From the NCBI GenBank assembly GCA_963758525.1, contig CAVWVQ010000004.1:32001-96000 (forward strand): 64,000 nt of DNA. Direction: 5' to 3'. Made by a program: the position numbers and the translations under genes. Under the pieces are notes generated by a model. It was not told the origin of the DNA and made no database searches. It worked only from the letters and a program-made list of their open reading frames with translations. The DNA is from an uncultured Phycisphaerales bacterium. GTDB taxonomy: Bacteria > Planctomycetota > Phycisphaerae > Tepidisphaerales > Tepidisphaeraceae. Every line of letters begins with the position of its first letter. The first letter of the stretch is position 1. Below, piece after piece: positions 6,839 to 59,071 of the stretch.

Positions 6839-6903
6839 ATTCTAGCACCATGTTCGACCCTGACAACGGGGGACTTCATGCATTTTTAGTATACTTTTGT
6901 CGC
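6839..6903 (-). promoter_or_regulatory. promoter with one GCGACAAAA box
   Basis: Minus strand: GCGACAAAA (6903-6895) ... TTGTCA (6866-6861)-N16-TAGAAT (6844-6839), with TG just before the -10. The box lies 1 bp from the distal-box position seen at the other copies; the proximal box is degenerate. Confidence 0.6.
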
Positions 6904-7099
6904 AATGCGCGGGGCTTCGATCCCCGTCCGCACGGAGCTCCGCAATGGGAGGAGCATATGGCGCGCCATCCTCGGTCTTCGTGCCCCTGGTGCTGCGGCT
7001 GCGGGTGAGAAATATTCAGTAGTTGCAGCATCACCAAAAGCCCCGTGCCGGTATATTACGTCGGCGGGTATCATCAACAGTCCGGCAGGAGCAGGCAAA

Positions 7100-9586
7100 A
7101 TGACGCGACGGCGGATGCATTCTTCGGGATTTCGTGCGGCGCATTGGGCAGTATTGATGGGGGCGATGGCGGCGGCCTTTGCCGGGGCGACGCGAGGGGA
7201 GGAGGGCGCGCCCGAACCGCGTGCGGCCAAGGCCGCGGGGGACCATGCTCCGGCGAAGAAGAAGCCCAAGCGCGACGTGATGAATCCCGACGCCTGGTAC
7301 AACAAAATGGACTACGGTCCCTTCCTTTCGGCCACCATCGTCAGCTCATTTCCCGATAAAAACATCACATATAAGGGCGTCGCGGTGAAGCTGACAGGCG
7401 ATGAGGCGGTCAACATTCTCTTCGACACACAGTTGATGCGCGTGGCGGCAGCGTGGAAGGGCGGGTTTCTAAAACTCGATGGGGTGGCCTATAGCGGAAC
7501 GCACGGGGTCAATCCGTCGCTGGCCGGAGAGCAAATCTTCGGCTCGCATAACTCGCCCGGCTGGGCTCATGAGGGGTCGTTCCACGATCCGCGCCCGGAG
7601 CCGTTTGGTGGAATGCCACGCAATTACATGCACTATCGCGGGCTTTACCGCGACGGCGGCCAGGTCGTCTTTTCCTACACCGTCGGCGATATGGACGTCC
7701 TCGAACTGCCCGGCACAGAGGGCGCCGGCGACGAGCTCGCCATCACGCGCACGATTCAGGCGGGCCCCTCGAAAAGCGCACAGACGCTGATCGTCAGTGA
7801 ACTGGACGCGGGCAAGGGAGGCGTCGGGCCGGTGTCGGGGGGAATCGGATCAGATCAGAAGGGACCTGCCGGCAAGACGATCGCCGTCATCGAGAATAAC
7901 GGCAACGCCACGGCAGCGGGTCTGACGGGCGCGCGAGCGGGGGCGACGTGGGAAGTGGTGGACGACAGGGGGCCGAGCATTCGGCTGACGCTTCCGCCGC
8001 ATGGTGCGAAGGAGACATTGAAGCTGGTGATTTGGAGCGGGCCCTCGGCGGGTCTGGAAAAGTTTGCCACGGCCCTGAAGGGGACTGCGATCGCAGACGT
8101 CGCGGCGCTGTGCAAGGGCGGCCCCGCCCGTTGGCCGCAAGAACTCGCCACGCAAGGGGCGCTTGGCGACGCCGATCCGAAGAACGCCAAGTCCGCTTAT
8201 GTTGTGGATGAGATTCTGCCGCCGAAAGAGAATCCCGGTCAGTCGTTTCTGCGCTTCGGCGGATTCGATCTGTTTCCGGATGGGAAGTCGGCGGCGCTGT
8301 GTACCTGGAACGGAGACGTATGGGTGGTGAAGGGAATCGATGCGAAGCTCGATCACCTGACCTGGCGACGAATTGCGGGCGGACTGTTTCAGACGCTGGG
8401 ACTGAAGATCGTCGACGGCGAGATCTACGTCATGGGACGCGATCAGATCACGCATCTGCACGATCTCAACGGCGATGGCGAAGCGGATTTCTACGAGAAC
8501 TTCAATAACGATGTGACGGTGGCCCCGGCGTTCCATGAGTTTGCCTTTGATCTCCAGCAGGACGCGGAGGGCAATTTTTATTTCGCCAAGGCCGGCGGAG
8601 TGCGTGCCGGCGGGCGTGGTTTTGAAACACCGGTTACTGCCGACCAGGGGACGGTGATGCGCGTGTCGAAGGATGGGAGCCGGCTCGATGTGATCGCTTC
8701 GGGGTTCCGCGCGCCCAACGGCATGTGCGTCGGCCCCGACGGGCAGATCGTGACCGGTGACAACCAGGGAAGCTGGATCCCGGTCGATCGCATCAACTGG
8801 GTGAAGCCGGGCGGCTTCTATGGCGTTCCCGAGTTGGCCCACCGCACGCCGACGCCAACGACCACCGACAACCCGCTCTGCTGGATGATCTATCCCAGCT
8901 GGGACAACTCCAACGGCGACCCCGTCTTCTGCACCAGCGACCGGTTCGGCCCGTTCAAGGATCAACTGCTCTATCTGTCCTACGGACAGTGTCACCTTTT
9001 CACCGTAATGAAAGAGGAAAAGGATGGCGAGATCCAGGGCGGTGTTTCCCGATTTCCTGTGGACTTTCAGACCGGCAGCATGCGGGCCCGCTTCAGCAAG
9101 ACCGACGGCGATCTGTACGTTTGCGGCCTCAAGGGCTGGCAAACGAGTGCCCGCAAAGACACCGCTTTCGAACGCGTGCGCTATACCGGCAAGCCGGCGC
9201 ACATGCCGATTGCGCTGCACGTGAAGGATAACGGAATTGAGATCACGTTCACCGATCCGGTGCAGAAGGATTCCGCCGCCGATCCGGGGGCGTGGGACAT
9301 TCAGCAGTGGAACTATCACTGGTCGTCGGACTACGGCTCCGGCGAATATTCGGTGGCCGATCCGTCGAAGAAAGGCCACGACACCGTGGCGGTCAAATCC
9401 GCGACGCTGTCCGATGACGGAAAGACGTTGTTCCTGGGCATCGACAACCTGCAGCCGGTGATGCAGATGCTGATCCGCGGCGAGATTGAAGCGGCCGACG
9501 GAACGCCAATGACGGTGGAGATCGCCAACACGATTAACGCGGTGAATGGGAAGAAGATGGTCCTGTCCGCGACGGAAAAGGGTTAA
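7100..9586 (+). CDS. DUF6797-like secreted protein with glucose/sorbosone dehydrogenase-like beta-propeller (copy 1)
   Basis: AGGAG then ATG 7100; signal-like N-terminus; MDYGPFLSATI, HYRGLY, GGFDLFPDG..CTWNGDVW, FYENFNND, HEFAFDLQ, GFRAPNG, DNQGSW, MRARFSKTDGDLYVCGLKGWQ. Confidence 0.7.
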   Translation: MTRRRMHSSGFRAAHWAVLMGAMAAAFAGATRGEEGAPEPRAAKAAGDHAPAKKKPKRDVMNPDAWYNKMDYGPFLSATIVSSFPDKNITYKGVAVKLTGDEAVNILFDTQLMRVAAAWKGGFLKLDGVAYSGTHGVNPSLAGEQIFGSHNSPGWAHEGSFHDPRPEPFGGMPRNYMHYRGLYRDGGQVVFSYTVGDMDVLELPGTEGAGDELAITRTIQAGPSKSAQTLIVSELDAGKGGVGPVSGGIGSDQKGPAGKTIAVIENNGNATAAGLTGARAGATWEVVDDRGPSIRLTLPPHGAKETLKLVIWSGPSAGLEKFATALKGTAIADVAALCKGGPARWPQELATQGALGDADPKNAKSAYVVDEILPPKENPGQSFLRFGGFDLFPDGKSAALCTWNGDVWVVKGIDAKLDHLTWRRIAGGLFQTLGLKIVDGEIYVMGRDQITHLHDLNGDGEADFYENFNNDVTVAPAFHEFAFDLQQDAEGNFYFAKAGGVRAGGRGFETPVTADQGTVMRVSKDGSRLDVIASGFRAPNGMCVGPDGQIVTGDNQGSWIPVDRINWVKPGGFYGVPELAHRTPTPTTTDNPLCWMIYPSWDNSNGDPVFCTSDRFGPFKDQLLYLSYGQCHLFTVMKEEKDGEIQGGVSRFPVDFQTGSMRARFSKTDGDLYVCGLKGWQTSARKDTAFERVRYTGKPAHMPIALHVKDNGIEITFTDPVQKDSAADPGAWDIQQWNYHWSSDYGSGEYSVADPSKKGHDTVAVKSATLSDDGKTLFLGIDNLQPVMQMLIRGEIEAADGTPMTVEIANTINAVNGKKMVLSATEKG

Positions 9587-9623
9587 GCAGCCGTTTCAGA
9601 ACGCTCCGGCGGTCTTCCGTTGA

Positions 9624-9709
9624 GGGTTCAGGGTGTCAGGGTTCAGGGTTCAGGGTTCAGGGTTCAGGATTCAGCAGCTCGATTTTCGCTGAACCGTGAA
9701 TCCTGAATC
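9624..9709. repeat. heptamer tandem repeat (GGGTTCA)n with short inverted arm
   Basis: About seven GGGTTCA-like units at 9624-9673, then reverse-complement units (TGAACC/TGAATCC) at 9689-9709. A degenerate copy lies near 60157-60177. Confidence 0.75.
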
Positions 9710-9812
9710 ACGGGCTCCTAAGCAACGAGGATCGATGCCCTTAGGTTCATGGAAATCACGGATTCGATTTCGAGACGGTCTCCGAACTCCGTACCGCTCG
9801 CTCCGTCTTCCG

Positions 9813-12077: not shown

Positions 12078-12119
12078 AGCTTCCGCGGGGAATTTCTTAC
12101 CCAGTGCAGCCGTCGCTAC

Positions 12120-15002: not shown

Positions 15003-17719
15003 CTACTTCGGGACCGTCACAGGTAATTGATCGGGAATGAGGCCCAGGCAATCAATCGCGGATAACCCGAATCCTGCCGCGGCGTTGGTCGATACCTCAA
15101 ATTCGTCGACCGGATTCAGCACGGTGTCGCCAGTCAGATGGCGCACTGCCAACGGGGGCTCCAGAACCTTGATCCCTCCGCCACCGCCGGAAAAAAACTC
15201 GCTCCACGCCCGCTTTGCCAGCGCCGCATCCTTCAACTTCCAGGCGGCATACGCCGTCAGACGAGCATGAGCCTGCGTAAGGTAGGGTGAGCCAAAATCC
15301 CTTCCGAACGCCTTCTGCTGCTCTTGAGGCGAAGCATTGTAATACTGACAGTACTCGATCCAGGTCTTTTCGTATTCGGGTACGTCCAGCAGTTGAAGCA
15401 GTTCGGCATTGACCTCGAACGCTCCGAATGAAGTGCATAAAGGGGAGATGTAAAAATGGTCATCCCGTTTGAAGAATCGGCCCGTGGCGAGGTCGTACCC
15501 TCCCCCGCCGGACAACCATCCGTGCGGCAGGGCCGCAATGGTCCTCATTCCAGTCAGCAGCTTGTCGCGGCATGCGATGTCGCCGGTCCGCTCCCATTCG
15601 GTCAGCCAGGCGGACGCGATCGACGTCCATTCGATGCCGATCATAAAGTTCATCGGATAAGGCTTCCCAGTGGTGTCGGCCAGCTCCTTTGATTCCTTCC
15701 TCTCCACCGGAACCTGCCCGGCCGTCTTGTCCGCCCCAAGCTCGTCGCGCATGAGATCTCCGGTGCGCTCATCGGCTGTCAGGTAGTAGAAGAATCGCCT
15801 ATTTTCCGCGGTGCTCACCCGCAACTGCTTGGAGCTGTCGCCCCAGGGCACCACGTTGTGCCGCGAACCCAGCCCCGCAAAACGACCCAGGTGATAGACA
15901 TCCACTTCGCCCGTGTGGCGGCACATCGCTTCGGCAAAGCGAAACAGATCCGCCCGGCCCGTGCGTAGAAAACTGTACCAAAGCCAGATATCCGTCGATT
16001 GTTCGGAGTTGTCCCAGGCATATCCGCCAACATCATAGCGCCAGCCGTGCCGATCAAAGTCGTACCGGTGCATGACATTGCCGAAGTACCAAAAGCCGTA
16101 CCAGTGACGCTGGTCGACCTGTTTCTCGTAGTAATCCAACAAAAAATTTTGTTGGTCTTCAATCCGCGCCGCGACCGGATTCCCACGATCGGGCAAGTTC
16201 CAAATCGCCCCGCCAAACACAGCGGCATCCTTAAAATCCTGCGGGCGGCACATCAGTTGAGGCGGGGTGCACAGTCTCCGCGACAGGCTCGCGACCCCGG
16301 CATTCGACGGAGTCGCCGGCAACGCCCAGAGCATCAGCTCACTGGTGCGCGCAATACCCGTGGCGGTGGCAAAACCTGGCTCGTAATCCTCGTAGGTCAG
16401 CTGGGCTCCTTCGAGTTGCTTGGCGAAGGTGTCCATCCCCATGTCATCATGCCAGCCGCGCAGATCCATCGGGCGCGCGTCGGGCGCCCAGAGCCACGCC
16501 GTCACTTCCGCGCTGTCGCTTGCCGCGCCGCGGATATTTAGTTGGCTCGGATAACTCTGCCAGAAGTTGCGGATGCCAAAAGCCATGCCGCCGCTCGGTC
16601 CACCCACATAACCCAGACCCGAAGCACGACGTCCGGTGGCGCTATTGATCCAGGCAAAGCCTGCTTTGGTGCGCTTGCGAATCTCAAACGAATCGGAGGA
16701 AAGCTGCGACAGCGCGAAATCGCCAAATGCCGGAACGTAGTCCAGGTCCTTGACGACCGCGGGATTCCATGTTTCCAATGGCGGAGTCTTTAGGCCCGCA
16801 ATTTGCCGCTTGCGCACTTCCGATCCCGGATCGCGCTGCAAGCCGGTCAATCCCCTCACCGCTTCGGCCCAGACGCCGTCGCCCTCCCCGCCGAACCGCA
16901 CATGCCGGTCGTAAAGCGGGTCTTTGAGGGGGACCGAGAAGCGAATGCCAAGGCCGCTGATGAAATCGTGTGACGCATCGCCGTCGAAGATGATCGTGTG
17001 AAGGATCCGCACCGAATCTGCGCCGGCATAAAAATAGAATCGCACCACAAATGGAAGCCACGTCCTGCCGCTCGAATCGGCGTGCTTCCCCTGCACCTTG
17101 ATCACCGCGCGAACCGGGCCCTCTTGCTCGATCGTGGCGGTCGATATCTCTCCGCGAAAGGACTGTTGTTGGATCGTGCCGTCGCTGTCAGGATCGGGCG
17201 AATTGCGGAGCAGGCAAACCAGTTGGCCATCGGTTGCCAATGTCTTGCCATCGCGAGAGATCGAGTCGAGCAGAATGTTGCCGCTCCTGCGAATTCGGCA
17301 CTGCATGACGCCGGTATTCACGGTGATGACATCCGCGTCCTCGCTGACCGACAGCGGCGCTGCGGGCGAGGGCGAGTCGCCCGGCTCGAGCCAAAACGGC
17401 CCGGCCAGGCCGGCGGTCGCGACGATTGCGTGGGCCGTCCATTTCAACGATCCATCCGGCCAAAAGGCGGTAGGCCAACTCTGCATCGGCACCGCCTTCC
17501 CATCCGCACTCCGCAAGGAAAACGACGTGCCTCGCGACACCGCCCCGCGCGGCCAGGCGCTCCCCACGTGCTTCCGACAAGCGAAGGGGATTCGCTGTTC
17601 GCGTCCAGCCAGTTCACTTGGCGCGGCGGAGCTTCCGCCCGAGCGCGGGCGGCCAGACCGAGCGCAAGGAACAGCGCCATGCGGAGAAGGGAAGAAGAGG
17701 TGTCGGAGCTTCGAGGCAT
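15003..17719 (-). CDS. exo-rhamnogalacturonan lyase-like protein (PL26 / YetA-like), frame break near 17560
   Basis: Signal peptide in ORF 17444-17719 (..GSTWG) continues into ORF 15003-17567 (WPRG..QSWPTAFWPDGSLKWTAHA; HWYGFWYFGNVMH; WRYDVGGYAWDNSE; HTGEVDVYH; GSRHNV). Confidence 0.8.
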
Positions 17720-18949: not shown

Positions 18950-19013
18950 ATTATACCATCGGCCGGATCGACCACAACGAAACTTTTGTCACCACTTCAT
19001 GCACCTTTGTCAC
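18950..19013 (-). promoter_or_regulatory. tandem-box promoter
   Basis: Minus strand: GTGACAAAG (19013-19005)-N12-GTGACAAAA (18992-18984)-N6-TTGTGG-N16-TATAAT (18955-18950), with an extended -10 TG. Confidence 0.75.
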
Positions 19014-28135: not shown

Positions 28136-28198
28136 GATGCGCAAGGTATCGAGGTTTGCAGGAGTTTGCAGCGGCTAACCACATATTTTTAGAGCCGC

Positions 28199-28262
28199 GT
28201 GACAAAAATGCATAAGTGAGTGACAAATACGCTCTTGCCAATGATCGCGAATGTGAGAAGAT
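28199..28262 (+). promoter_or_regulatory. tandem-box promoter (copy 1 of a duplicated promoter)
   Basis: GTGACAAAA (28199)-N12-GTGACAAAT (28220)-N6-TTGCCA (28235)-N16-GAAGAT (28257), TG before the -10. Confidence 0.7.
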
Positions 28263-29292: not shown

Positions 29293-29399
29293 CGTGATTC
29301 GCTCGCCCCTATCACCCGCCGCTCGGGGTGAAAGTCCGCCGTCGGGACAAACGATGATGGTGATCTTCGGGGGCGGCGGGGTTCTGTACGCCTACGAGC

Positions 29400-29462
29400 G
29401 CGACAGAATACATAACGGAATGACAAATACGCTCTTGCCAATGATCGCGAATGTGAGAATAT
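29400..29462 (+). promoter_or_regulatory. tandem-box promoter (copy 2 of a duplicated promoter)
   Basis: GCGACAGAA (29400)-N11-ATGACAAAT (29420)-N6-TTGCCA-N16-GAATAT; 29421-29459 is identical to 28221-28259. Confidence 0.7.
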
Positions 29463-33276: not shown

Positions 33277-33678
33277 ACCACAGAGGGGGAAGAGCCCACA
33301 GAGATCACAGAGCGAATTTAAGTGCAGGCAGCCGTGATCGGCCGCAATTCTGCAACTGAGTTTCGGGACCACGCTCTGTCTCTGTGCCACAACCCATTGA
33401 GATCTTCGCGCGCTGCGCAAATTTTCCCGGGCAGGCGATCAGCCAAAAGATCAAGAGCCGCGAAGACGCGAAGCCGCGAAGACAAACGCGAAGGAAGACA
33501 ATTCAATTGCACCTGAAACCCGAGGGCACAATTCCTTGGGCTTCGATCCCGCATTTTTGATTTTCTTACCTTCGCGTCTCTCTTCGCGTCTTCGCGTCTT
33601 CGCGGCTCTTCGTTTTGGTTGCGGCCGAGCGAAGCGAGGCAGCGCCGGGATCTCTGTGAGCTCGGTGTCCTCTGTGGT
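33277..33678. repeat. nested inverted short-repeat arrays
   Basis: Outer pair ACCACAGAGG..CACAGAGATC (from 33277) versus ..CTCTGTG..CCTCTGTGGT (to 33678). Inner pair AAGAGCCGCGAAGACGCGAAG.. (from 33453) versus ..CTTCGCGTCTTCGCGGCTCTT (to 33610). Confidence 0.75.
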
Positions 33679-39629: not shown

Positions 39630-39693
39630 ACTCTACCGCAGGTCCAAGCCACTGCAAGGATGTTTTTGTCACAAGTTTATGTGCTTTTGTAAC
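39630..39693 (-). promoter_or_regulatory. tandem-box promoter
   Basis: Minus strand: GTTACAAAA (39693-39685)-N12-GTGACAAAA (39672-39664)-N6-TTGCAG-N16-TAGAGT (39635-39630). Confidence 0.75.
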
Positions 39694-39815: not shown

Positions 39816-40067
39816 AGAGCGACAGCGGGTGGTTTGGGCGCTTGGGATCGCGATTCGCTCCGGAGCGCAGCGTCTATAACCGGAGATCGCTGCCGATGAC
39901 AAAAGTGCAGCAATTGGCACCGCAAGTAATTTTTAGGGCAGAACGCACAGACGGGATGGACGGAGAAGGCGGAGAAGCGTTCCGAGGCAGAATATCTCTT
40001 CTGGCGGAATATGCCATTGTCGGACTTTCGCCGCCGCGGGACCGGGGCGGGCGATGACGAGGGATCG

Positions 40068-40590
40068 ATGACCCAATCGCAGACGCCCAAGGAGTTCGCA
40101 TATCAGTTGCTGCGCGCTCAGCCGCACATATACGGCTATGTGTATTCGTTACTTCCGAATACGGACGCGGCGATGGACGTGCTGCAGGAAACGAACCTGG
40201 TGCTCTGGCGAAAGTCCAACGAGTTTGTGGGGGGGAACTTTTTTGCGTGGGCCTGCAGCGTCGCGCGGTTCTGCGTGCTTTCTCACAGACGGGACCTGGC
40301 CCGCGAGAAGCGGGTGTTCAGCGACGAGTTGATCGAAGATCTCGCGGATCAGTTCGAGCAGCGGTTGCCCAGGGTGAATTTGATGGCGGAAGCTTTGGAA
40401 CGGTGCCTGGAGAAGCTCACTGCGGAGGACCGCGAGCTGCTCAACGCCCGCTACTCCCACGGGGGATCGGTGGCCCAGGTGGCGGCGCAGCGGGGAAGAA
40501 CTGTCAACGCGATCTCCCGTGCCTGCTACCGCCTGCGCGATACTGCTTGACTGCATCCACGGGTCACTGGCGAAGGAAACTGCCCTATGA
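40068..40590 (+). CDS. ECF sigma-70 factor (Rhodopirellula/Verrucomicrobium type), frame break near 40543
   Basis: IYGYVYSLLP..AMDVLQETNLVLWRK..NFFAWACSVARF..ALERCLEKL..RELLNARY. The shifted frame gives LLDCIHGSLAKETAL*, whose TGA overlaps the next ATG (ATGA). Confidence 0.88.
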
Positions 40591-42395
40591 GCAATCCCGA
40601 ACCAGTTTCGCCAGATACTGACCGGCTCATCGGGAAGTTGGTCGATGGGTTATTGGACCCCGAGCAAACCCGGGGTCTGGAAACACTGCTGAAAAGCAAC
40701 GAAGCGGCACGCGGTCGATATTGCGATCTGGTCATGCTGCACTCGCTGCTGCAATGGCGCACCATGGGCAGCGAAATGGCCCTTGCCTTGGGCGATGACG
40801 ACCAGCCTGCGGCGACGGATTTGCACGCGGCGATGATTTTGCCCGCCATTCGAATCGATGAGCCGATCGTAACAGGTCAACCTTCTCCGGGCTCGCCAAT
40901 GGGGCCAATGGGTGGGCCATCATTGGAGGATCTGGAGATTCCCGCGGCGCGGGAGGGAATGGCGAAATCCGTGCCAGTTGCGTCCGGCACCACCTCTCAC
41001 CCACGGTGGAACTTCATCCGGATGTGGTACGTGGCGGCCTCGGTACTCGTCGTTGCGTCCCTGGCAGCAGTGATCACCTCGGCGGTCATGCGGGAGCGAT
41101 CGCACGCAGCCGACGTTGCGACGTTGACGGGCACCATCGATGCACGTTGGGATGATGCGCCGGCCGGACTGGGCGACGGCGCAGTGCTCCCTTTGCAGCA
41201 GGTCATCTCCCTGCAATCCGGGTGGGCGGAATTGGCATACCCCAACGGCGTGGTGGTCACGATCGAGGGGCCGGCGCGGTTCTCCATCCGGCCCGGACAG
41301 GAATTGTCCCTGGAGCGGGGAAAACTGGTGGCACTGGTCTCCAAGGCTGGACATGGCTTTGCAGTCACCACTCCCTGTGCGCGGGTCGTTGATCTCGGCA
41401 CTGAGTTCGGGGTTGCCGTAGGTTCAACTGGAGAAACCGACGTCGACACGTTTCGCGGCACGGTATCCCTCACGCCCACCGCCGTCGCGTCCGATTCGGC
41501 CTCGACTCTCATCAGCGCCGGCTTCGCACGACGCGTCAGCTCGACCGGAGCCATCGCGGAAGTCCCGATCAACGAGAATGCGTTCGTTCGGCCTCAGCAG
41601 TTTGCTGACTGGAACTCGACGCACCCAGCCGGCTACGAATCATGGCGCGCATACAGCGAACGGCTGCGCCATGATCCGGATCTGGTCGCTTACTACACAT
41701 TCAACAAAGCCGCTCAATCGCCCGATCGGCTGCTCAATCAGTCATCCCTTGGCTCGGCCCTGGATGGCGTTCTAACCAGCGACAAACCCGGAGTTCGCCC
41801 CGCCTGGACAACAGGGCGCTGGCCCGAGAAGGGCGCTTTGGAGTTTAGCGGAAGCGACAACCCGCGGGTGGTCGTGGCCAGCGGGCGCGGGGACCCGCTC
41901 GATTTCTCACGCGGCCAGCAGACAGCCTCTCCAATGACGATTGCCGGCTGGATCCGGCCTGAGGCTGAAGAAAACGCTGCGATCGCTGCCAAAGGCGCTA
42001 GTTTTTCAGAGCAGTTCGCGCTGGAAACGGGGCGCGCCTGGGTCAGACAAACCCCTGGCAATGCCAACGAGCCGCTGAGGAGGGTCTTGACGCCGCCCGC
42101 CGGAGCAGGGGTATGGAGCCAGCTTGTGTTTACCTACGACCCAATTGGGCGCAACACCCGCCTGTATCGCAACGGCGTTCTGATTGGTTATGAGGAAAGC
42201 GCCCCTGCACGGCTGTTGCAGACGGAGGCACCGATGACCATCGGTTGCCGCCCACTCCACTTATCTGACAAGCCGGGCAAGCCTCCGCAGTACATCGGAG
42301 CTTTTCATGGTTGCATGGACGAGCTGCTCATTATGAAAAGAGCGATGTCTGCCGACGAGGTGCGCGAGATGTTTCGAATAGGAAAGCCTGGTTGA
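40587..42395 (+). CDS. FecR-domain anti-sigma factor with C-terminal LamG-like (concanavalin A) domain
   Basis: N-terminal LVDGLLDPEQ..ARGRY, one TM segment, FecR motif GFAVTTPCARVVDLGTEFGVAV, then LVAYYTF..GRWPEKGALEF..MTIAGWI..LYRNG..FHGCMDEL. Confidence 0.88.
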   Translation: MSNPEPVSPDTDRLIGKLVDGLLDPEQTRGLETLLKSNEAARGRYCDLVMLHSLLQWRTMGSEMALALGDDDQPAATDLHAAMILPAIRIDEPIVTGQPSPGSPMGPMGGPSLEDLEIPAAREGMAKSVPVASGTTSHPRWNFIRMWYVAASVLVVASLAAVITSAVMRERSHAADVATLTGTIDARWDDAPAGLGDGAVLPLQQVISLQSGWAELAYPNGVVVTIEGPARFSIRPGQELSLERGKLVALVSKAGHGFAVTTPCARVVDLGTEFGVAVGSTGETDVDTFRGTVSLTPTAVASDSASTLISAGFARRVSSTGAIAEVPINENAFVRPQQFADWNSTHPAGYESWRAYSERLRHDPDLVAYYTFNKAAQSPDRLLNQSSLGSALDGVLTSDKPGVRPAWTTGRWPEKGALEFSGSDNPRVVVASGRGDPLDFSRGQQTASPMTIAGWIRPEAEENAAIAAKGASFSEQFALETGRAWVRQTPGNANEPLRRVLTPPAGAGVWSQLVFTYDPIGRNTRLYRNGVLIGYEESAPARLLQTEAPMTIGCRPLHLSDKPGKPPQYIGAFHGCMDELLIMKRAMSADEVREMFRIGKPG

Positions 42396-42464
42396 AGAAG
42401 TATCGGTTGCAGTCGTTTTAACACTACGGAACACAAGATCTTAAATTCTCAGGGAGAGTGATAA

Positions 42465-45400
42465 ATGCGAGGGTTCATTTCTGACAAAATCGTAGTATCG
42501 AAGCGAAACAAGCGCCTTCTGACCGCCGCGGCGGCGGCTCTGCCGTTGTCTGGGATGCTGCTGAGCCAGTCGGCTTGGGCCGCCAATACCGAGCAGAACG
42601 TCAATAATGGCTCGGCTGATCTCACTAATGCCGCCAGCTACACGCCCACTGGTGTGCCGACCGTCGCCAGCGATGTGACCTTCAACGCGGTGACTTACAC
42701 CCCCGCCGCATTCACGCTCAATAGCAGCCAGACCTTCGGCTCGCTCAACGACCTGAGCTCTACGGCACTGACGATTTCCAACACCAGTTCCAGCGGCACG
42801 GGCGACACCCTCACCCTGGGCGGCACGGGCGATCTTGGCGATGGCGTTCTGGGCTCAAACTCCAGTGACCTTCTTTTCGTCAACACCGGCAGCAACCTGA
42901 CCCTGACGGGCGGCAGCGGCGTAACGGCCTTGGGCCTCGTCCTCGGCCAGAGCGGCAACTTCGATGTCTCGGGCACGGCAACTATTAGCTCTGCCATCAC
43001 CAGCACCGGCACGGCCAACCTGACCAGAACAGGATTGGGACTTCTCACGCTTTCCGGCGGAATCAACAACACCGGAAGCTTCACCAATTCGGGCACTGCG
43101 CCAACTATCTACCCCATCGTGGGAATCGCTGCTCCGCCCGCCGGGTCTACCTACATTAATGGCACGGTCGGCGCCAGTGTGACCGGGATCGTTCAGAACG
43201 GCACTTCGGACCTGGTTCTCAATAATCTTGGCTCGACCTACAACGCAGGCATCACGATTCAGAACGGGGCCGTGCTAATCAGCGTCGGGGCCAACGCGCT
43301 GGGCGCCACGACCGACACCGTTTACCTGGGCAACGGCTCGACGACCTCAAACGCGACGTTGGATTACGCGGGCAACATCGCCGGTTCAGGCGGTGCCAAC
43401 CACACGTTCGTCAACCCCATCACGGTCGGCTCCAAGACCGGTGAGGGCGTGAATGTCATCAGCGCGTCTGACTATAACCTGACACTGAACGGGCCGATCT
43501 CGCTGACCGGCGGCGACCTGACCCTCGCTCCGTTTAATACTGGTAGCAGCACCATCACGGTCACCGGCGGCATCACGGGCACGGGCAACGTGTTCGTTTC
43601 GGACGTGGATAACAAGAACAGCAACATCGTGACCCTCAGCGGCAGCCAGATCAATAACAACGGCACGATCACTTTTAACAACGCACCGATCAACGGTGTG
43701 CTCGCCACCGCCGCCAACACCGGTACGAACGTCGTCAGCGCCAACATTGGGTCCAGTGTCAAGCAAGTCATCGAAAACAGCACCGACCCGCTGCAACTCT
43801 CGGGCGCAAATGCTTACACAGGGCCAACCACGATCTTAACCGGCACGATCAACGAGACGGGCGGGTCACTCGCCTCGACGACCCTGAACGTCGGCGCCGG
43901 CACGTTCAACTACTCGAAAACGGGCGGCACGCAAGGCTTCACGACCACGAACCTCACCGCCGGCGCGACCATCAACAACACGAGCGCCACGGCAACCCTC
44001 AATCTGGGCACGGTGAGCCGCCCGGTCGGCACCGCCGTCGATTTTGGCATCACTGGAACGGTCAACATCGTCAATGCCAACACCGGCACCACAATTCTCG
44101 GCGGCTGGGCCACGACCGGGGGCGGGGCGAACTGGGCGGTCAGCGGCGGCAACGGCAGCACGGCCGGCGCCATTACTGCTCTCGGTGTCTACACCACGGC
44201 GAACGCCACGGCGGCAGCGGACAATGGTGCGGATATCGACGTGAATTTTAGCACGGCAACGAACACCACTGCTTCGGGCGCGATCACCCCGAACAGCATC
44301 CGCTTCAGCGGCGCGGCCGCGAACACGCTTACCTTGACGGGCACGAACGTCGTCGCGACCGGCGGTATCCTTGTTACCCCCAGCGTGGTCGGCAACGCCT
44401 CAACGATCGCCGGCGGGACGCTCGAGGGCTCATCCGGCGGAGACCTGGTCGTCAATCAATGGGATTCCAACGCCGCCGGTACCTTGACCATTTCATCGAC
44501 CATCGCAAACAACGGCAATGCGACCGCATTGACCAAGGCGGGTCCGGGAAAACTAATCCTCTCGACCAACAACAGCTATACGGGCGGCACGTATATCGTC
44601 GGCGGCACCCTTGCTGTCACCGCCGACGGACAACTCGGCGGCGGCACGAGCGGAAGTCCGACCACCATCACGATCAACGGCGGCACCCTGCTAGACAACG
44701 CCGCCGCGAGTTTCACGCTTGGGTCAGGCCACATCTTAAGCATCGGCAGCAGCGGCGGCGGCATCTCTTCCACGGGAGGCTTTAACCAATCCATGGTCCT
44801 GGGGACCACAAACCAGTTGACCGGGAGCGGCACACTTACATTGAACGGGACAGGCGCTGCTAACAGCTCGCTCGTCGTGAGCGCTTCGCAAAGCGGATTT
44901 ACCGGCAACATCGTGATCAACACCGGCCGGCTCGAATTAAACACCAACGGCGTCACCTCACCTCTGGGTAGTGGCACAATCACCATTGTCTCCGGCGCCA
45001 CGCTCGGTGCTTCCATCGTCACCAACTCGAATACCGGCAACACCATCACGAACACAATCTATGTGGCCGGGAACGGCGACAACGGCGCGATCCATAGCAA
45101 GGCGGCGGGTGGGACGACGAATACTTTCAGCGGCCCGATCATCCTCACTGCTAACGCGAGCTTCTATGACGACGTTAATAGCACCAGCATCACGGCTTTC
45201 AGCGGCGGCATCTCCGGACCTTACACGCTGACACTGAGCGGAAGTGGCAGTTATGTCCTGAGCGGTGTGGATACAGAAGCCGCGCTCACCCTCAACAACA
45301 ACGGCGGCACGACCCAACTGAGCGGCAGCGGGACGCTGGGCGCGCCGAACGTCACCCTTAACTTTAGCCAGAACGGCGCCAAACTCGACCTTAACGGCAC

Positions 45401-46538
45401 CAATCAGACGATCGGGACGATCAACAACAACACGGCCACGATCCTCAACAACGGCAGCCAGGCGAGCACCCTGACGATCAACGGCGGCGGCACCACCGCG
45501 ACCGCCTTCAACAATGGAAGCAACACGCTGGGACTCACCGTCGGTGGTGCAAGCACGCTCACGCTGAGTGCGTCAAGCTCCTATTCGGGCGGAACAACGA
45601 TCAACGGAGGCACGCTCGCGCTGACCCCGGCTTCGCCTTCGGTCAATAACATCGCGTCTTCCAAGTTCATCAACGTTGGAAATGCTGCCGCCTTGAACGT
45701 GACCAACGTCGGCGGCGCGGCGCAAACGCGTTCGCGTTGAAAGGCACTGGTACCCAGTCGACCAGTCAGATTCTGGGCGGGACCGGTACCGTGACAGGGG
45801 CCGTCGCCACCGCTAATGGAGCGACTCTTTCCGCGGGAACCGACAGCGGCACGGGAAAAGTGAATGTCGTCGGCGCAAGCTCCACCCTGCTCCCCGCAAC
45901 CGGGACGACCAACACCATCGGGACGTTAACCACCGGCAATCTGGCCCTCGGAGCCTCCACGGGCACCAGCGGCAACCTGGCGATCAAAGTGTCTGATGCG
46001 GCCAGCTCGGGAAACCCCGGGACGGCTGGAACCAATTACGATACGGTTGTCGCGCAAACCATTAGCGTGCCCTCCAATTCGCCCATGCTCCCGGCCAGTC
46101 CCTTCAACGTTCAGTTGCTCGGGTACGGAACCCTCAGCTCACCGGTGGCGAATTCCGCGTCGGTCAATTTCAATTCGAACGCCACATACGTCTGGCAAAT
46201 TGCCTCGTACACCTCCACGACTATCCCGGGCACCGGGGACGGCACGACGGAAGTCCTCACCAACGGCGGCGGTCTGACCGCGCCATCGGCCGTTTCCGGC
46301 CTGTTCAGTCTCGATACCAGCGGATTCGCCAGCGCCAACTCCATCCCCGGAGGCCAGCAGGGCATTCTATCTGGAAGACGTCGGAACCACCGGCGGCGCC
46401 GGAACGCTGGACGTGGTCTACAACGCCACCCCCGAACCCGGGACGGCGGTGCTGGTTCTCGCCGGCGTCGTTCCGATGCTCGGTCGCCGTCGGCGACGCC
46501 GCGGTCGGGATCGGAAGGAAGAAATGCTGGCCCAGTAG
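42465..46538 (+). CDS. large PEP-CTERM surface protein with autotransporter-associated beta-strand repeats (copy 2); frame breaks near 45720 and 46355
   Basis: ORF 42465-45740 (signal AAAALPLSGMLLSQSAWA, ALTKAGPGKLILSTNNSYTGGT) + ORF 45737.. + third frame AFYLEDVG..DVVYNATPEPGTAVLVLAGVVPMLGRRRRRR..EMLAQ* (TAG 46536-46538). Confidence 0.85.
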
Positions 46539-46745
46539 CCCGACGTTCGGGCAGGGACGGCGGGATTCGCAGTGGAGCATATAGTCATCGGCCATCTGGT
46601 GCCCTGCCGCATTCTTGAGGACGGGCACCACGCACCGTTGAAACACCAGCTGGGAGGCTGCCGAAACGCTACTATCGCTTAATTCGCCGTGTTCGGGCTT
46701 GCTAAAATGTGCGCGATGCATCCGGCCGCCCGTCTGGAGGGAACC

Positions 46746-48428: not shown

Positions 48429-48794
48429 TCAGCAGTAACAATAGCTTTCCCAATGATTAAGATGTGAAGAAACCGGGGGAGCCGAGATGGGTTCGCGCGG
48501 GCAGCCTACAAGATCACCAACTTCTCCGTAGCTTGCATTGAACTTATCCGCAGTGCCTGCATAGCAGATCGTGTTGCCCTTGCTCTCGCCCAGATACATG
48601 ACGTAAGCGGTGGCGAGCTGGCGCACGTTCAATGCGCATTGAATCGCTTTGGAAGCCTGACGCGCGCGTTTCAGGGCGGGCATCAAGAGGGCGATGAGAA
48701 TGGCGATGATCCCGATGACGACCAACAGTTCGACAAGTGTAAAACCGTTTGGACGCGAGGCACCCGCCGCGGCGGGTAAACTGTGGCACGACAT
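48429..48794 (-). pseudogene. truncated prepilin-type (DUF1559-like) gene
   Basis: [47 protein letters not shown], then stops at about 120 aa with no H-X9-DG motif. Confidence 0.7.
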
Positions 48795-49165
48795 CAGTCT
48801 GCGCGGCGAATGAGCGGCGGGATGAAGGGGAGGAGAGCTGCTGCTCACTGATGGCAGCCCGACCAGCAACAGCGGGAAATCAGCGCCGGTGCCATGGGCG
48901 TGCTTGCAAGGCCGCATCGTTCCCAACCTTTCCAAGACGTCGCAATTACGGCGGGCCAGCCCGACTCACTCCGCCGAGCACGATCGTGCTGAATCGCACT
49001 TCTGCCTGTCGGAGTTTCCTCCATGGAAACAGTTTTCTGTTGTACGCCAAATAGGTGCTGAAACAAGGGGGAGAAAAGGCAGTTCCTTATATACTTACGT
49101 CGCGCTGAAAGGTCACCGTGATCTTCAACTTGCTCATGGCCAGCCTCCAAGTCGGACCGCTCTTT

Positions 49166-49273: not shown

Positions 49274-51028
49274 TCAGGTTCGCACGTACGCCTGCAAGGT
49301 CGCACATTCACTTCCCATGGCCTGCCCATCCGGGCGAATCGTGTACGCACCAACGACGGCGGGGACAATGAAAGTCTCGGCGTAGTGCACGACAAACGGC
49401 TCAAACGCGCCGGTGGGGCTTTCCACGATGGCTTGCTCCCCTTCCACCAAATTCAGCACGTGGACGCCGCCGTGCGTGTCGTGCTGCACCGGCCCAGTAA
49501 ACCAATGACGGCGAGTTTCGATAAACTCGCGCCGGTGCAGCCCGGTGCGCTCCTCCCGCCAGCCGGGGCCGGAGGCGAGCGGTTCGACGACACTCACGAG
49601 ATGATCGCTGACCCACGATGTTGTGCAATCCCATTGGATATTGGCTATGCCATGCCGCAGATGGATCGGGCGGGGCCTGCCGTCGAGGCCCAGACGACCC
49701 CAGTCCCACATTTTGAAGGTGAAGATGTAGGGAGTGGCGCTGATCTCGAGAACCATCGACCCCGCTCCGCTGCAATGCACGGTGCCGGCCGGGATCAGAA
49801 AGTGATCGTGCTTTTTCGCGGGGAAGCGGTTGACATATTTCTCGGCGGGAAATGGAGCTCCCCCGGCCTGAGCCTGTTGCAGGTCGTCGAGCATCGCTTC
49901 CCGATCGACTTGCGACTTGATGCCCAGATAGACGCTGGCTCCCGGCTCGGCGTCGAGGATGTAATAGCTTTCGTCCTGCGTGTAATGCATGCCAAAATGA
50001 TGCTGGATATATTCGGTGAGCGGATGCACCTGGAAGGAGAGATTGCCGCCGCCGATCGTATCGAGGAAATCGAAGCGGATGGGAAACTCGTCGCCGAAGC
50101 GAGCGTGGACGGGATCTCCGAGAAGCGCCCTGGGCTGGTGGAACACCAGATCGAGTGACGGTATCTCCAGGCGCAGGTCCGCAAAGCCGAGCAGCAGGCT
50201 GTTCTCTTCCGGAACACAGTCGAAGCACCATCCGTAATTGGTCGCGGTGCGGTCCAAATCACAGAACTGCTTCATCCATTGTCCGCCCCACGGCGCCGGG
50301 TCAAAAAAGGGGACAACCCGAAAAGGCCGCGTGGCCGCATGCTCCAGGGCGCGGCGCACGGCGGCGCCATCGGCCAGCTTCGGCTCGGGGCCGTGGGTGT
50401 CGAGAACATAGTCCCAGCGCGCGATCAGCGGCCGCTTCCAGCGATCGCAGACCCGCCAGTCCACAAAAAATGCGCGTTTGTATTGAAGACTTGCCGCCTG
50501 CGTTTGGTTGCTTGCGCCAAGGTTGGCAACCTGATTCCGCCGGTAACGCAACTGCCCCTCCCAGCGGGAGAGGTCGGCATAGACGAGAATGTCCGGCTGG
50601 GCCACCAGGCTGGCCCCGCATCCCACGATCAGCACCACTCCCGGCCCGGCTTGCGCAGCCTGTGAGCGAAGGTGATCAACCTTGGCGGCATCGAAGAACT
50701 GCGGGAGGGTCAGCCCGCAGAGAAAGCCGAAGACCGGATCATCGCCGCCCAGAAAGGGCTCGATCAGCGCGTCGATCTGTTCGGACGGAAGCATCGCGTC
50801 GGCCGCGTGAAGAGTTAGTGCGGGAGTGAGCCGGGTCGCAAGCTCCCGAAGGACCATTTCTTCGTCCACCCCGGTATAGCACTCCACCACCAGAACAGTT
50901 TTAGCGGCGGCGCGATTCGCGACCGCCTGGCGCAGACGTGCTGCAACCTGCGTCCAGCCCTGCACACAGCAGTTGGCGCCGCCGGGCACTTCGATGAAGG
51001 GGAATTTATCGTAGTTGGATGTTCTCAT
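49274..51028 (-). CDS. class I mannose-6-phosphate isomerase-like protein (long form)
   Basis: PFRVVPFFDPAPWGG, EFPIRFDFLDT, NLSFQVHP, QDESYY, LIPAGTVHCSG, VLEIS: cupin metal-binding Q-H-E-H set, with a ~230 aa N-terminal extension. Confidence 0.85.
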   Translation of the reverse strand: MRTSNYDKFPFIEVPGGANCCVQGWTQVAARLRQAVANRAAAKTVLVVECYTGVDEEMVLRELATRLTPALTLHAADAMLPSEQIDALIEPFLGGDDPVFGFLCGLTLPQFFDAAKVDHLRSQAAQAGPGVVLIVGCGASLVAQPDILVYADLSRWEGQLRYRRNQVANLGASNQTQAASLQYKRAFFVDWRVCDRWKRPLIARWDYVLDTHGPEPKLADGAAVRRALEHAATRPFRVVPFFDPAPWGGQWMKQFCDLDRTATNYGWCFDCVPEENSLLLGFADLRLEIPSLDLVFHQPRALLGDPVHARFGDEFPIRFDFLDTIGGGNLSFQVHPLTEYIQHHFGMHYTQDESYYILDAEPGASVYLGIKSQVDREAMLDDLQQAQAGGAPFPAEKYVNRFPAKKHDHFLIPAGTVHCSGAGSMVLEISATPYIFTFKMWDWGRLGLDGRPRPIHLRHGIANIQWDCTTSWVSDHLVSVVEPLASGPGWREERTGLHRREFIETRRHWFTGPVQHDTHGGVHVLNLVEGEQAIVESPTGAFEPFVVHYAETFIVPAVVGAYTIRPDGQAMGSECATLQAYVRT

Positions 51029-52053: not shown

Positions 52054-53115
52054 TCATCGGCTGTCCTTCGCCTGGCTGACGTTGATCAGGACCGCCAGCA
52101 GAATCAGACCGCCGCGCACGACGTGCTGCCAGTATTCACTGATGTTCAGCAGCGTCATTCCATTCACGAGGACGCCCAGGAAGATGACGCCGATGAGCGT
52201 GCCCCACATGGTGCCGGCGCCGCCCAGCAGGCTGGCGCCTCCGATGATCACTGCGGAAATAACGTCCAGCTCCCATCCCATCGCGGTGCTGGCTGAGCCG
52301 GCCATGATCTGCGAAGACTGCATGACGCCGCTGAGGGCCGCGAGCAAACCAAGCGCCTCCCATCGCCACGATTTTGACCTTGCGGACATTGATCCCGCTG
52401 AGTCGCGCCGCTTCGGCATTTCCGCCCACGGCATAGATGGCCCGTCCGAACGCCGTGTAGCCCATCATGATCTGAAAGAAGAGGAAAATGACCACGAACA
52501 CGATGGCGGGGAACGGGATCTTTAGCACGTAGCCGCCGCCCAGGAAATTGTACCAATCGGGAAACGGCGTCAGCGGGAAACCGTTGGTGAGCAACTCGGC
52601 GGCGCGCGCAGCACCGTCATCCACGCCAGGGTGGAAATAAACGTCGGCACCCTGAACCGCGTGCGGAGCATTCCGCTGATGCTGCCGACAAAAAATCCCA
52701 GCAGCAGACTGCTGAGAATCGCCAGCGTGATCGCCAACGGCAGCGACAGGTGCAGGGGAGCGCCGCTCAGCCAGCCGGTGAGCCATGCCGTGAGACAGCC
52801 GGAGAGCGCCACCGCCGAGCCGACGCTCAGATCGATCTCGCCGGCGATGATGACCATCGTCATGCCGAACGCGATGATGCCCTGCATCGACACGTTGCGC
52901 AAGACATTGAGCAGATTGTCGATCGAGAGAAACCCATCCGCCTTGAACGCCAGAAAGATGCACAGAGCCAGCAGCACCAGCTCCATGACCAGTTGCCGCG
53001 CCAGCCGGCTGCTGCGGCTCCAGGCCCCGAGCCGGACTTGCGTGGGTTGGGCGGTTGCGGCGTCAGTTGGCGCGGAGGCTATTGTGCCGGTTTCGTCGTT
53101 GGTTGCCGTTTCCAT
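52054..53115 (-). CDS. sugar ABC transporter permease (RbsC-like), frame breaks near 52608 and 52355
   Basis: GMTMVIIAGEIDLSVGS (ORF 52570-53115), FGRAIYAVGGNAEAARLSGINV (ORF 52136-52963), WELDVISAVIIGGASLLGG (ORF 52054-52434). Confidence 0.88.
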
Positions 53116-53122
53116 GTCGCTT

Positions 53123-55668: not shown

Positions 55669-55841
55669 GTTGGAAAGGCCGCCCGCCGCCATAATTATAC
55701 TAAACTTCGCGGCAGAATAGTTGAATTGCCCTCAATCAGCCGGCGATGCGCCGGATGAGAAATCTCCGCTTTGCTCAGTCAGGAATTGACGCTTGCCCCC
55801 TTCACGGCCAGGCACTGCGCGCCCCAAGCACAATTTGGGGG

Positions 55842-55905
55842 AGAGTACCACTCTTTCGACCGCCGACAAGGCTGTTTTTGTCACCACGTTATGTGTTTCT
55901 GTCAC
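55842..55905 (-). promoter_or_regulatory. tandem-box promoter
   Basis: Minus strand: GTGACAGAA (55905-55897)-N12-GTGACAAAA (55884-55876)-N6-TTGTCG-N16-TACTCT (55847-55842), with an extended -10 TG. Confidence 0.75.
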
Positions 55906-56009
55906 CCGGACACCGAGCGATGGTTTGTAATGCGCGACATTTCTACGTTCTGAGTTCGATCTGCAAGACGCGGAACACACCGCCGCCCCGCCGCTGCCCC
56001 TTTTTTCTC

Positions 56010-59000
56010 CTACCGCGCCGGCACATGCACGGTCGTCGACGATGAAATGCCGGCGGCGTTCACCGCCGTCACCTGGTAGGAGTAGTCGATGCTGTCGTCG
56101 AGACCCTTTTTGGCCGCATTCTTGTCGGTGACGCCTTGATCGGTGTAGGTGGTTTCAACAAGCGCGGTCAGGAAGTTGGACGGCCACTGGAATGACCTCT
56201 CGGCGCCCGTGGAGCGGTAGATGACGTAGCCGGTCGCGCCGGGAACCGCGGACCAACTGAGCGTGATGGCGTTCCCGTTCCTCGTCTTCTTCCAGTGTCC
56301 CACGAGCTCCGCGGGCGCTCCGCTGGGCTTGGGAGGCAGTGGCTGGGCGCTCACGACCGGAGACGGCCCGCTCGTGCCGGCCGCGCTGGAGGCCCTCACA
56401 AAATAGCTGTACATCCGGCCATCCGACGTCGCGCTGTCGACGTAAGCCGTCTCCGTCGTTGCATCGTCGACGATTGCCCAGCGCAACGGATAGACGCCGC
56501 CGACACCGTCCGCGTGCAGCGCGGCGCGCCAGACGTTGTAGTAGTTTGCCCCCGGCGACGCGTTCCAATGCAATGCGACGTTGTGATGGCCGGAGGCGGT
56601 GACCTTCAAGCCCGTGGGCGCCGGCGGGACGACGGAGGGGAGGCGGGCCGACGGCATCACTCCAGAGCTGGGTGATGAGGGGGCTCTGGCGGATCGGGTT
56701 CACTGACTGCACGGCATAATAGTATTGCGCTCCACTGACAGCACTCGTGTCAATAAATGCGGCCCGGCTCGTGTCGGAGCCACTCGTGGGGCCGATCACC
56801 CCGGTTGCGATCGATGCGAAACCAGCGCCCGGCGCAGTCGAGCGCAGGATGTTGTAGCTGGTTGCTCCGGGAACCGCCGGCCAACGGACCAGGACGCGGC
56901 TGTTGCCGGGATACGCCGTGACGCTGGCGGGCGCGGGAGGGACGTAGCCGGTCAATTCAAGGCGCAGGTAGTCCACCATGAGATAGGCGGTGCCGTTCTT
57001 GGCGTTCATCTGGATGGTGATGGTGTTCTGCCCGGAGTGGAGCATTTTGCCGGGGAGATTGATCCGCTCGTCGGAGAACGGGCCGTGATCGCCGAAATGA
57101 ATGCTGCTGTCGTCGGAATACGGAGGATTGAAGCCGTCGGCATCAATAGTCTGAGGCGCGGCGGTCACTCCGGCCGCTCCACCGAGGTTGACGTCGTTGA
57201 CACCGACGACGACATGGCCCCCATCATCTCCGGCGCATCCAATGTAAATTGAAGCTTCTGATCCGCTGGCGGGCGGCTGCGCAAGATTGAACGTGAGTTT
57301 GCCCGTGGCAGACTGGTAATTCCCGGCTAAGTCAGGCGCGGAGGGCAGGCAGTAATTCCAGTCGGCCTCCCACCGGCTTTTCCCGACGGTGAAATTCAGT
57401 CCGTTCGGGAAATCCAAAGGATATTCCATTTGGCCTCCCCACACCGGGGTGGGAAAGCCGAGCTTGGGCGGCACGCCTGGCGCCCAGAAATCGTCGCCAT
57501 GACGAAACTTGTCGGCCTTTCGATTCGGATAACCCAGCTCAAACACCGTTGCGCCGACGCGTTTGGGGATCCAAGTCACGGTTCCCAAGTCAGTCGTCGC
57601 GCCGGCGGCAACTTTCACCGCAAACGGCGTCGCGGGCAGGTCGAGCTCCAACGGCGGGTTGCCGCCCGTCTGATTTTGGGAGAGGAATGTTCCTGCCGCT
57701 CCCGGTCCGTAGGCCCACAACGAGTAATGATCTCCGGGGAGCACATGGGGGAAGCTGAAGCTGCCGGTCGAGTCTGTCTGCGTCCAGAACTGATAGGGCT
57801 TGAGCCATTTCTGAAAATCGTATGTACCGTTGTTGGTTTGGGGCTGCTGCTCCAGACCCACCCACAGCCCAGCGGCGGAGGCGTTGGGATTGCCGCTGTC
57901 ATTGATGACAAATTTCCCAGCAACCGTGCCGCGCCCTGAAGCGGGAACAAAGCTCGGGTTCTTGAACCAGCTATACGGCCACGCCTGTTTTTCAGCCTCG
58001 GCCTGCGCCAGTGCGTCTTGATACAGCATCGCCGCCGCCCGCTTCGAGTCCGTGATGTTGGTGGGAACGTCATTCAGGTAGATAAACCATGGCCCGCACG
58101 TCTTGGTCCAGATTTCGCCGTCGGCAAAATGCCCGTCCGAGCCCATTCCCAGTTCACCGGTGAGAATCGAGTTGTTCAATTCGCTGTAGGGATAGACCGA
58201 CACGTCCCGCTTCATCGGTCCGCCGTTGCTGAATTCCATGTTGGTCATCATCCAGATGCCGACGTTCAAGCCGCCCTGCCCGACGCTGCTCCATCCCCAG
58301 GCGCGCAGATCGGCGTGATCCTGTCCATAGATAAACTTGTCGGCGTACTGACCTTGCTGTGTGCCGTTGAGGTTGACGGTGATTTCATGCGGCGAGTTGG
58401 GCACTTTCACGCCGGATTTGCTGGGCACCCCAATCAAGAAGTTGCGCATCGCATCGGCGCTCAGCCAGTTGAAGTTTGGCGGAACTCGCGTGACGACGCC
58501 CCACGCGCCCACTTCGAATGCGACATCCTGGCGCCGGTGAGTCATGACGGCGGTGGAATAGTATCCCGGCGATCCGCGCAGCATCGAGAAATGCACTTCC
58601 ATCACGCCGTTGGAGTCGGTCGTGCTGAGCAACATCACGTCGGCGTACTTCCCGCCGTTGCTGGCAGGATCAGTGGCAAGCGAATACTCGTAAACGCCGC
58701 TGCCGAGGCTGAATCCGCCGTAGTAGTATTCTCCTTTGCCCTTGAGCACCTCGCTGGTTTGAAGAGTGCCGCCGTTGCGGTGCGTGTACGTCACCGAATT
58801 GAGCCGGGCAGTCTTCTTCACGATCGCGATGGAAACCAAGCCATTTCCCATCGTCACCGTGCCGTCGCCGTTATCGGTAACAGTCACAGGCGGTCCCGAC
58901 CCCGTTCCGCCGCCGGGAATGTTCGCCAACGCCGCGCAATGATGTGGCGACAGGACGACCGCCAGCGAAACAAAGGACAGAAGATAGCGTGTGCAGCAGC

Positions 59001-59010
59001 TTGGCATCAT
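56010..59010 (-). CDS. PL4-like rhamnogalacturonan lyase with three C-terminal fibronectin type III repeats; frame break near 56680
   Basis: Signal peptide; VTMGNGLVSI, WTKTCGPW, WPYSW, YQFWTQTD, FELGYPNRKADKFRHGD, VDYLRLE; Fn3 repeats (WPAVPGATSYNILRS; WNASPGANYYNV and WSAVPGATGYVIYRS in ORF 56010-56660). Confidence 0.8.
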
Positions 59011-59041
59011 CCACCGGTATACCCGTTCTGAGTTCGTTTGT

Positions 59042-59071
59042 TGGTCTCACCAAATACTTAACTTCTGTCAC
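59042..59071 (-). promoter_or_regulatory. degenerate tandem box upstream of the PL4-Fn3 gene
   Basis: Minus strand GTGACAGAA (59071-59063)-N12-GTGAGACCA (59050-59042); 21-bp period kept, but no clear -35/-10 at the standard distance. Confidence 0.4.

Follow-up and report, generated by a model that had tools for sequence, protein, structure and literature searches.

A putative AraC-family regulator and its predicted direct-repeat operators in a rhamnogalacturonan-type glycan cluster of a Tepidisphaeraceae bacterium

The glycan cluster and its AraC-family protein

The stretch of DNA analysed here, referred to as the window, comprises 64 kb of contig CAVWVQ010000004.1 from an uncultured Phycisphaerales bacterium of the family Tepidisphaeraceae (G000:C4:32001-96000; genome G000, 6.47 Mb, 90.9% complete), and our subject is a set of promoters with paired 9-bp boxes and the AraC-family protein that probably binds them. 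Scans of the window proteins against Pfam and NCBIfam showed that the window holds most of one glycan cluster, a single AraC gene included. The cluster encodes two PL4-like lyases and a PcRGLX-like lyase, GH92, GH130 and GH38 enzymes, a SASA esterase, a sugar ATP-binding cassette (ABC) transporter and a ROK kinase, besides several pilin-like genes, two PATR-repeat proteins and a pair formed by an extracytoplasmic function (ECF) sigma factor and FecR. No SusC or SusD was found among the window proteins scanned, and tRNA and Rfam searches gave no match.

The AraC-family protein (59302..60138, forward strand) has 278 amino acids and consists of a cupin and a helix-turn-helix (HTH) part only, with no fused sensor kinase or receiver. 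Its C-terminal double HTH matched HTH_18 at 80.9 bits (Pfam cut-off 33.6) and its N-terminal cupin matched AraC_binding at 28.2 (cut-off 21.1). The AlphaFold2 model (mean predicted local distance difference test, pLDDT, 90.8) has an N-terminal beta-barrel and matches the folds of AraC (2arc), BgaR and ToxT, and the names of its 114 homologues are Tepidisphaeraceae, Phycisphaerales or Planctomycetota. The scores for the NCBIfam equivalogs of E. coli AraC, RhaS and RhaR stayed below their cut-offs (55.8/208, 43.1/288 and 50.2/363, respectively). From the domains, homologues, model and fold matches, the protein is predicted to be an activator with a cupin sensor. The genome holds eight HTH_18 genes, the one in the window included, and an orthologue of the regulator (E <=1e-50) was present in 16 of 140 genomes of the family.

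Double-box promoters in the window

The initial annotation had described five promoters of shared layout, box-N12-box-N6-TTGnnn-N16-(T/G)AnnnT, with 9-bp boxes at a 21-bp period that point towards the downstream gene. Four of them, here called sites A-D, carry this layout exactly and in the orientation described. Site A (18950..19013, reverse strand; boxes 19013-19005 and 18992-18984, -35 at 18977-18972, -10 at 18955-18950) heads a frameshifted pilin-like gene (ATG 18846), a PcRGLX-like (PL26) exo-rhamnogalacturonan lyase (15003..17567, reverse strand; Pfam; PDB 5xq3, E 5e-224), a Gfo/Idh/MocA gene and a major facilitator superfamily gene. Site B (28199..28262, forward strand; boxes 28199-28207 and 28220-28228, -35 at 28235-28240, weak TG-extended -10 at 28257-28262) heads a pilin-like gene with a very short leader (ATG 28273), whose orthologue in G057, 50% identical, likewise carries a site. 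Site C (39630..39693, reverse strand; boxes 39693-39685 and 39672-39664) heads a large surface protein of the PEP-CTERM-like kind with PATR repeats, whose reading frame ends at 34418 and probably starts at 39526. Site D (55842..55905, reverse strand; boxes 55905-55897 and 55884-55876) heads an operon (55692 to 49274) of the sugar ABC transporter, the ROK kinase and an isomerase that can be specified as type I mannose-6-phosphate isomerase-like (49274..51028, reverse strand; PDB 1qwr, E 2.5e-10, residues 234-460). Four targets are thus clean, instead of the five or six proposed at first.

The four sites are real and not due to chance. When each was held out in turn and all 30 columns were scored on both genome strands, no positions other than the three training sites and the held-out site itself attained its score (4/4); with the boxes only, four to five positions per held-out site reached it. 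The exact 9-mer has 30 copies in the genome, five of which lie inside the window, that is, in 1% of it. The CAT(A/G)A core noted in the box spacers is present in all four sites; across orthologue sites (see below), conservation is limited to the C and the A/C after it. A TG-extended -10, overlooked in the initial annotation, is seen in three of the four promoters.

The fifth proposed promoter (29400..29462, forward strand), which precedes the DUF6797 gene (29476-31830), has the N11 spacer described, hence a 20-bp period. As it shares 40 identical consecutive bases with the promoter of site B, box 2 and the -35 included (28196-28262 versus 29397-29462), it is a partial duplicate of that site and not a fifth independent one, and the duplication is recent. 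It ranked 1294th in the genome in register and 4th-5th after a one-base insertion behind box 1. The missing base may reflect decay or an assembly indel, the latter being plausible given the several apparent frameshifts in the window. This duplicate, and a 7-bp box-like tandem repeat common in many genomes of the family, would suit the idea that the sites arose by duplication of a single promoter, represent a microsatellite or are an element that pilin-like genes carry in general. That idea is already largely refuted and its residual chance is slight: among sites A-D the boxes are kept while the linkers and the -35/-10 spacers differ, no 7-bp periodicity is seen, only three of the 47 pilin-like genes of the genome, the three in the window, score above 13 bits, and in the regulator tree the motif is spread over many distinct branches.

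Apart from these, weaker sites were also assessed. A sixth promoter had been proposed at 6839..6903 (reverse strand), before pilin-like, PL4 (3509..5428, reverse strand; rhamnogalacturonan lyase-like, Pfam) and SASA esterase genes, with GH29, GH92 and GH52 genes beyond the window. It is a probable site, in which the strong distal half-site (genome rank 4) and the 16-bp spacer were borne out, but the spacer is shifted by one base and the proximal box is poor; its double box ranked 23-24 with the profile and 12 with the -35/-10 added. The two weaker boxes reported earlier are likewise high-scoring and both off-register. The half-site at 3464-3472 has genome rank 3, and its second box is found only at period 22 or 24 (chosen post hoc among six periods), making 3443..3472 (reverse strand), before the SASA esterase, a possible internal site. 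The probable site in the araC-divergent region (59042..59071, reverse strand) ranks 8 as a double box and 6 with the -35/-10; it lies before the PL4-like gene (56155..59010, reverse strand; Pfam) at a non-standard spacing to the -10, and the start codon of that gene occupies the expected -10 position. Standard sites are present at the orthologues of this PL4 gene in L100 and L164. A further candidate, absent from the initial annotation, lies at 39896..39925 (forward strand), before the genes for the ECF sigma factor (40011) and FecR (40587); it has rank 9, or 5 with the -35/-10, with no clear -35/-10 in register. The stretch behind it (40011-46618) holds the ECF sigma factor, FecR-LamG and the second PATR protein, and could possibly form a second regulatory tier. 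The transcripts of genes 28273, 29476 and 59010 are predicted to have a very short leader or none.

Probable assignment of the double box to the regulator

As the boxes had been attributed to the local AraC protein, we looked at the upstream regions of its orthologues. An alignment query returned 61 metagenome and 37 genome loci, of which 63 were full-length with upstream DNA, and these gave 45 non-redundant regions of 350 bases. A profile trained on the four window sites matched 16 of the 45 at >=15 bits, 15 of these matches pointing away from araC, as compared with 7 of 4,249 upstream regions of the window genome and 2 of 369 AT-rich ones. Low-identity AraC loci had also been considered as a control and were rejected, as they matched at the same rate at 12 bits and were apparently AT-richer; the upstream regions were used instead. 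On varying the period from 15 to 27, 16 matches were obtained at 21 and at most three at any other, and the direct arrangement of half-sites dominated over the inverted one, which reached at most 5/45 at one spacing.

In the reverse direction, de novo expectation maximisation on the orthologue regions, with the window left out, recovered the motif with a log-likelihood of 347 against 138 and 140 in two shuffles, the seeds being random, the width set with a view to the window sites and the shuffled runs having fewer seeds. The resulting profile placed the four window sites at genome ranks 1-4 (C 1, A and D 2-3, B 4), while ranks 5-7 were reading frames or a short repeat. With the orthologue-learned -35/-10 added, window sites took ranks 1-6 (C 1, A 2, D 3). 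In the window genome, the double-box architecture is confined to the cluster. In 34 orthologue sites, the commonest position of TTG was gap 6 (11 sites) and that of TAnnnT gap 28 (13 sites), as against four sites each at the runner-up gaps. These are the positions proposed in the initial annotation, although the offsets of the predicted promoters played no part in choosing the sites; the -35/-10 spacer was 16 bp in 16 of 35.

Co-occurrence was surveyed over the 140 family genomes. A first family-wide pattern was discarded, swamped by the 7-bp tandem microsatellite that resembles the box and has dozens of dispersed copies in some genomes (G134, G135, G136, G019, G096, G147 and others). The exact pattern that avoids it was present in 12 of 16 AraC-positive and 22 of 124 AraC-negative genomes (Fisher p 7e-6, an overstatement given the non-independence of kin and the training sites among the matches). 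There were 42 matches, of which 30 were scored as loci, three more from fetched stretches, and seven from other genomes were left unscored; among those scored, >=23 bits was reached only in AraC-positive genomes, the best AraC-negative match (22.3) lying in a repetitive stretch. No site (best 15.2) was seen at homologues of the isomerase in eight and of PL4 in six AraC-negative genomes, but none was seen either at the isomerase and PL4 copies of AraC-positive G057 and G124. In a quick regulator tree, which shows the spread of the site only, site-bearing loci (30 of 46 rows with the orthologue-trained profile) fell in several separate supported branches and a Lentisphaeria outlier.

The 9+12+9 layout by itself would also suit another DNA-binding protein, as the operators of LytTR regulators are direct repeats of 9 bp with 12 bp between them; the other HTH_18 genes of the genome and the ECF/FecR pair inside the cluster are further candidates. 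That any of these is the binding factor is very unlikely. No LytTR match was obtained in the window genome at its 90.9% completeness, with the control positive in 5 of 14 genomes; within 6 kb of the other seven AraC genes no score exceeds 15.8 bits, as against 27.9 at the window araC; and a homologue of the ECF factor was found in one orthologue locus only. AraC was the only protein cluster common to most loci (34 of 43 groups, the next in nine), the loci having been fetched through AraC.

Some observations weigh against assigning the double box to the AraC protein. The 350 bases upstream of 29 of the 45 orthologues contained no site, and the -10 of site B, like that at 29400, begins with G. 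Three of the 12 AraC-positive genomes with the pattern have weak matches only, some of the matches are training sites, and related genomes do not count as independent. In the complete genome G077, the exact pattern is absent and the 80 kb surrounding the orthologue contain no site >=14 bits; the same holds for G054 over ~42 kb. In G057, the orthologues of PL4 and of the isomerase lack an in-register site. Besides, no orthologue was seen to have an isomerase, ROK, binding protein, GH38 or DUF6797 gene as a neighbour. Weighing the footprinting in both directions, the co-occurrence and the failure of the other candidates, we put the probability that the double box is the operator of the 59302-60138 protein at roughly 85%.

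Sites were also noticed outside the family and away from the regulator. In the Lentisphaeria locus L171:9867, an AraC protein of 31% identity in another phylum is accompanied by this double box, which there precedes a GH2 gene. Strong sites in G057 (contig C7; L202:4186 and L203:3982) lie far from araC, before G8-domain proteins, and thus the regulon is not always local. In L081, L083, L087, L137 and L145 a single box in reverse orientation directly precedes the start codon of araC and might serve autoregulation.

Around the regulon, the GH92/split hypothetical/GH130/GH38 operon (28121 to 19271, reverse strand) lacks a site that points in its direction and faces away from the 28199 site. The cluster extends ~20 kb to the left of the window (G000:C4:12291-33629) with GH29, GH92, GH52, pilin-like, GH2 mannosidase and GH106 genes, a stretch in which no double box >=12 bits was found. 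At its right edge lies a UPF0236 gene (62588-63949), presumably of a transposase family, and an apparent housekeeping gene follows beyond the window. Split or truncated genes (pilin 18846/18673, 24503/23382, permease 52136-53115, 42465/45737, 48429-48935) suggest long-read indel errors or decay. An intergenic element of at least 60 bases at 33570 is repeated at several places of the genome (C3:574791, C3:3900916).

Targets, inducer and relation to known systems

The first genes behind orthologue sites encode PL4, PcRGLX, GH106 rhamnosidases, GDSL/YxiM-type esterases, PL9, GH95, GH92, GH2, Gfo/Idh/MocA and G8-domain proteins, as well as pilin-like and PATR/PEP-CTERM proteins; the PcRGLX orthologue in L100, for example, also has a site. 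Orthologue neighbours, surveyed as 72 and 42 selected proteins, add GH28, GH35, GH42, GH53, GH78, GH88 and GH127, alongside numerous unrelated genes. These targets, recurrent across lineages, point to rhamnogalacturonan I (RG-I) as the substrate. The mannose ABC/ROK/isomerase operon, whose site in the window is first-rate, is likely a lineage-specific recruit since its isomerase, kinase and binding-protein genes never neighbour an orthologue, and the DUF6797 genes look like recruits as well.

The RhaI-like gene of the genome (C3:3175165) has no site (no more than 9.2 bits within 6 kb of it) and RhaM was not found. As this rhamnose isomerase-like gene is siteless, which is as expected for a polymer regulator like RhgR, an RG-I-derived oligosaccharide is favoured over free rhamnose; judged from the targets, such an oligosaccharide has somewhat better than even odds of being the inducer, mannose or another sugar is clearly less probable, and free rhamnose slightly less so again. 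ManR was considered for the isomerase and rejected, as ManR of Bacteroides belongs to the GntR family. Sphagnum pectin (sphagnan) is said to release rhamnose, mannose and arabinose (PMC9599518) and would fit the mixed enzyme set; the habitat of the window is not established and this is only a lead.

The protein might alternatively bind the boxes but mainly repress, or sense mannose instead of a pectin fragment, given that the second box at 59071 may cover the -35, that the cluster is mannose-rich (GH92, GH38, GH130, beta-mannosidase and the isomerase) and that the closest relative (L075) has its site before a GH92 gene. We regard this as improbable, since the boxes of the four main sites and of most orthologue sites are located entirely upstream of a weak -35, at a fixed distance from it, which is the position of an activator, and what recurs across lineages is RG-I enzymes and not mannose enzymes. 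The 59302-60138 protein is best described as a likely sugar-induced activator of a rhamnogalacturonan-type glycan cluster. Following the precedent of the AraC family, a dimer would bind two ~17-bp half-sites on one helix face, with the proximal one overlapping the -35 by ~2 bp and recruiting polymerase with the housekeeping sigma factor to weak promoters (class II activation); the proximal subunit would contact sigma region 4, by analogy with E. coli AraC. The cupin domain would sense the sugar, most likely an RG-I fragment as judged from the targets, and the regulon would then turn on lyases, esterases, the operon for mannose import and entry, pilin-like proteins and the large surface protein. 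The mechanism itself is textbook AraC.

The role of the pilin-like and PEP-CTERM proteins, to which surface capture had been ascribed, is a hypothesis. Of 41 orthologue sites, seven were too short to assess; in 8 of the remaining 34 the site is followed first by a pilin-like gene, as compared with 40-47 such genes among the ~5,600 of the window genome (~0.8%). The pilin-like (N-methyl, DUF1559/H-X9-DG) and giant PATR/PEP-CTERM proteins might be substrate-specific parts for glycan capture, a counterpart of the SusD type, with each set wired to the activator of its glycan and this regulon marking the rhamnogalacturonan-specific ones; we consider this doubtful as yet. A single-sequence fold of a pilin-like protein gave pLDDT 34.8, an Atlas search returned only hypothetical N_methyl/DUF1559 clusters, and the literature search gave no relevant paper on DUF1559/H-X9-DG function. 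In a verrucomicrobium, a pseudopilin is described among 17 alginate-induced genes (PMC13274419). As the regulon would assign a few of dozens of pilin-like paralogues to one substrate, their function becomes directly testable.

A 2024 survey states that clusters of carbohydrate-active enzymes have not been functionally characterised in Planctomycetota (PMC11131199), and our literature search, which had RegPrecise and most subscription journals outside it, found no planctomycete regulon reconstruction. What the window offers is a putative pair of regulator and operator, a layout of promoters in the phylum (TTG, a spacer of 16-17 bp and, frequently, a TG-extended -10) and possibly an inducible promoter. 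Among known systems, E. coli AraC binds 17-bp direct half-sites at PBAD, 4 bp apart and overlapping the -35 (PMC11983282); it resembles the window system in its direct-repeat half-sites abutting or overlapping the -35 and in its cupin and HTH fold, and differs in sequence (55.8 against the equivalog cut-off of 208) and in sugar. E. coli RhaS and RhaR are likewise AraC-family, rhamnose-linked regulators with a half-site overlapping the -35, but are described as binding inverted repeats (PMC3870299, PMC11983282), unlike the direct repeats of the window. The hybrid two-component systems (HTCS) of Bacteroides share the AraC-type HTH, direct repeats ~21 bp apart and a pectin-degradation cluster (HTCS_Rgu-1, PMC3878776); in them sensor, kinase and receiver are fused to the HTH, whereas the window protein is a stand-alone cytoplasmic cupin-HTH protein. 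AraC-family regulators with 21-bp direct repeats are described as controlling rhamnose or rhamnogalacturonan use in Bacillales, Bacteroides and Enterococcus (PMC3870299). Compared with RhgR/RhaR of Bacillales and RhaR of Bacteroides, the window system belongs to another phylum and adds pilin-like and PATR/PEP-CTERM genes to the targets; the likeness to RhgR, judged from the published description, is one of mode of action. By this analogy, the window regulon appears to work like the regulons of RhgR or of the Bacteroides HTCS.

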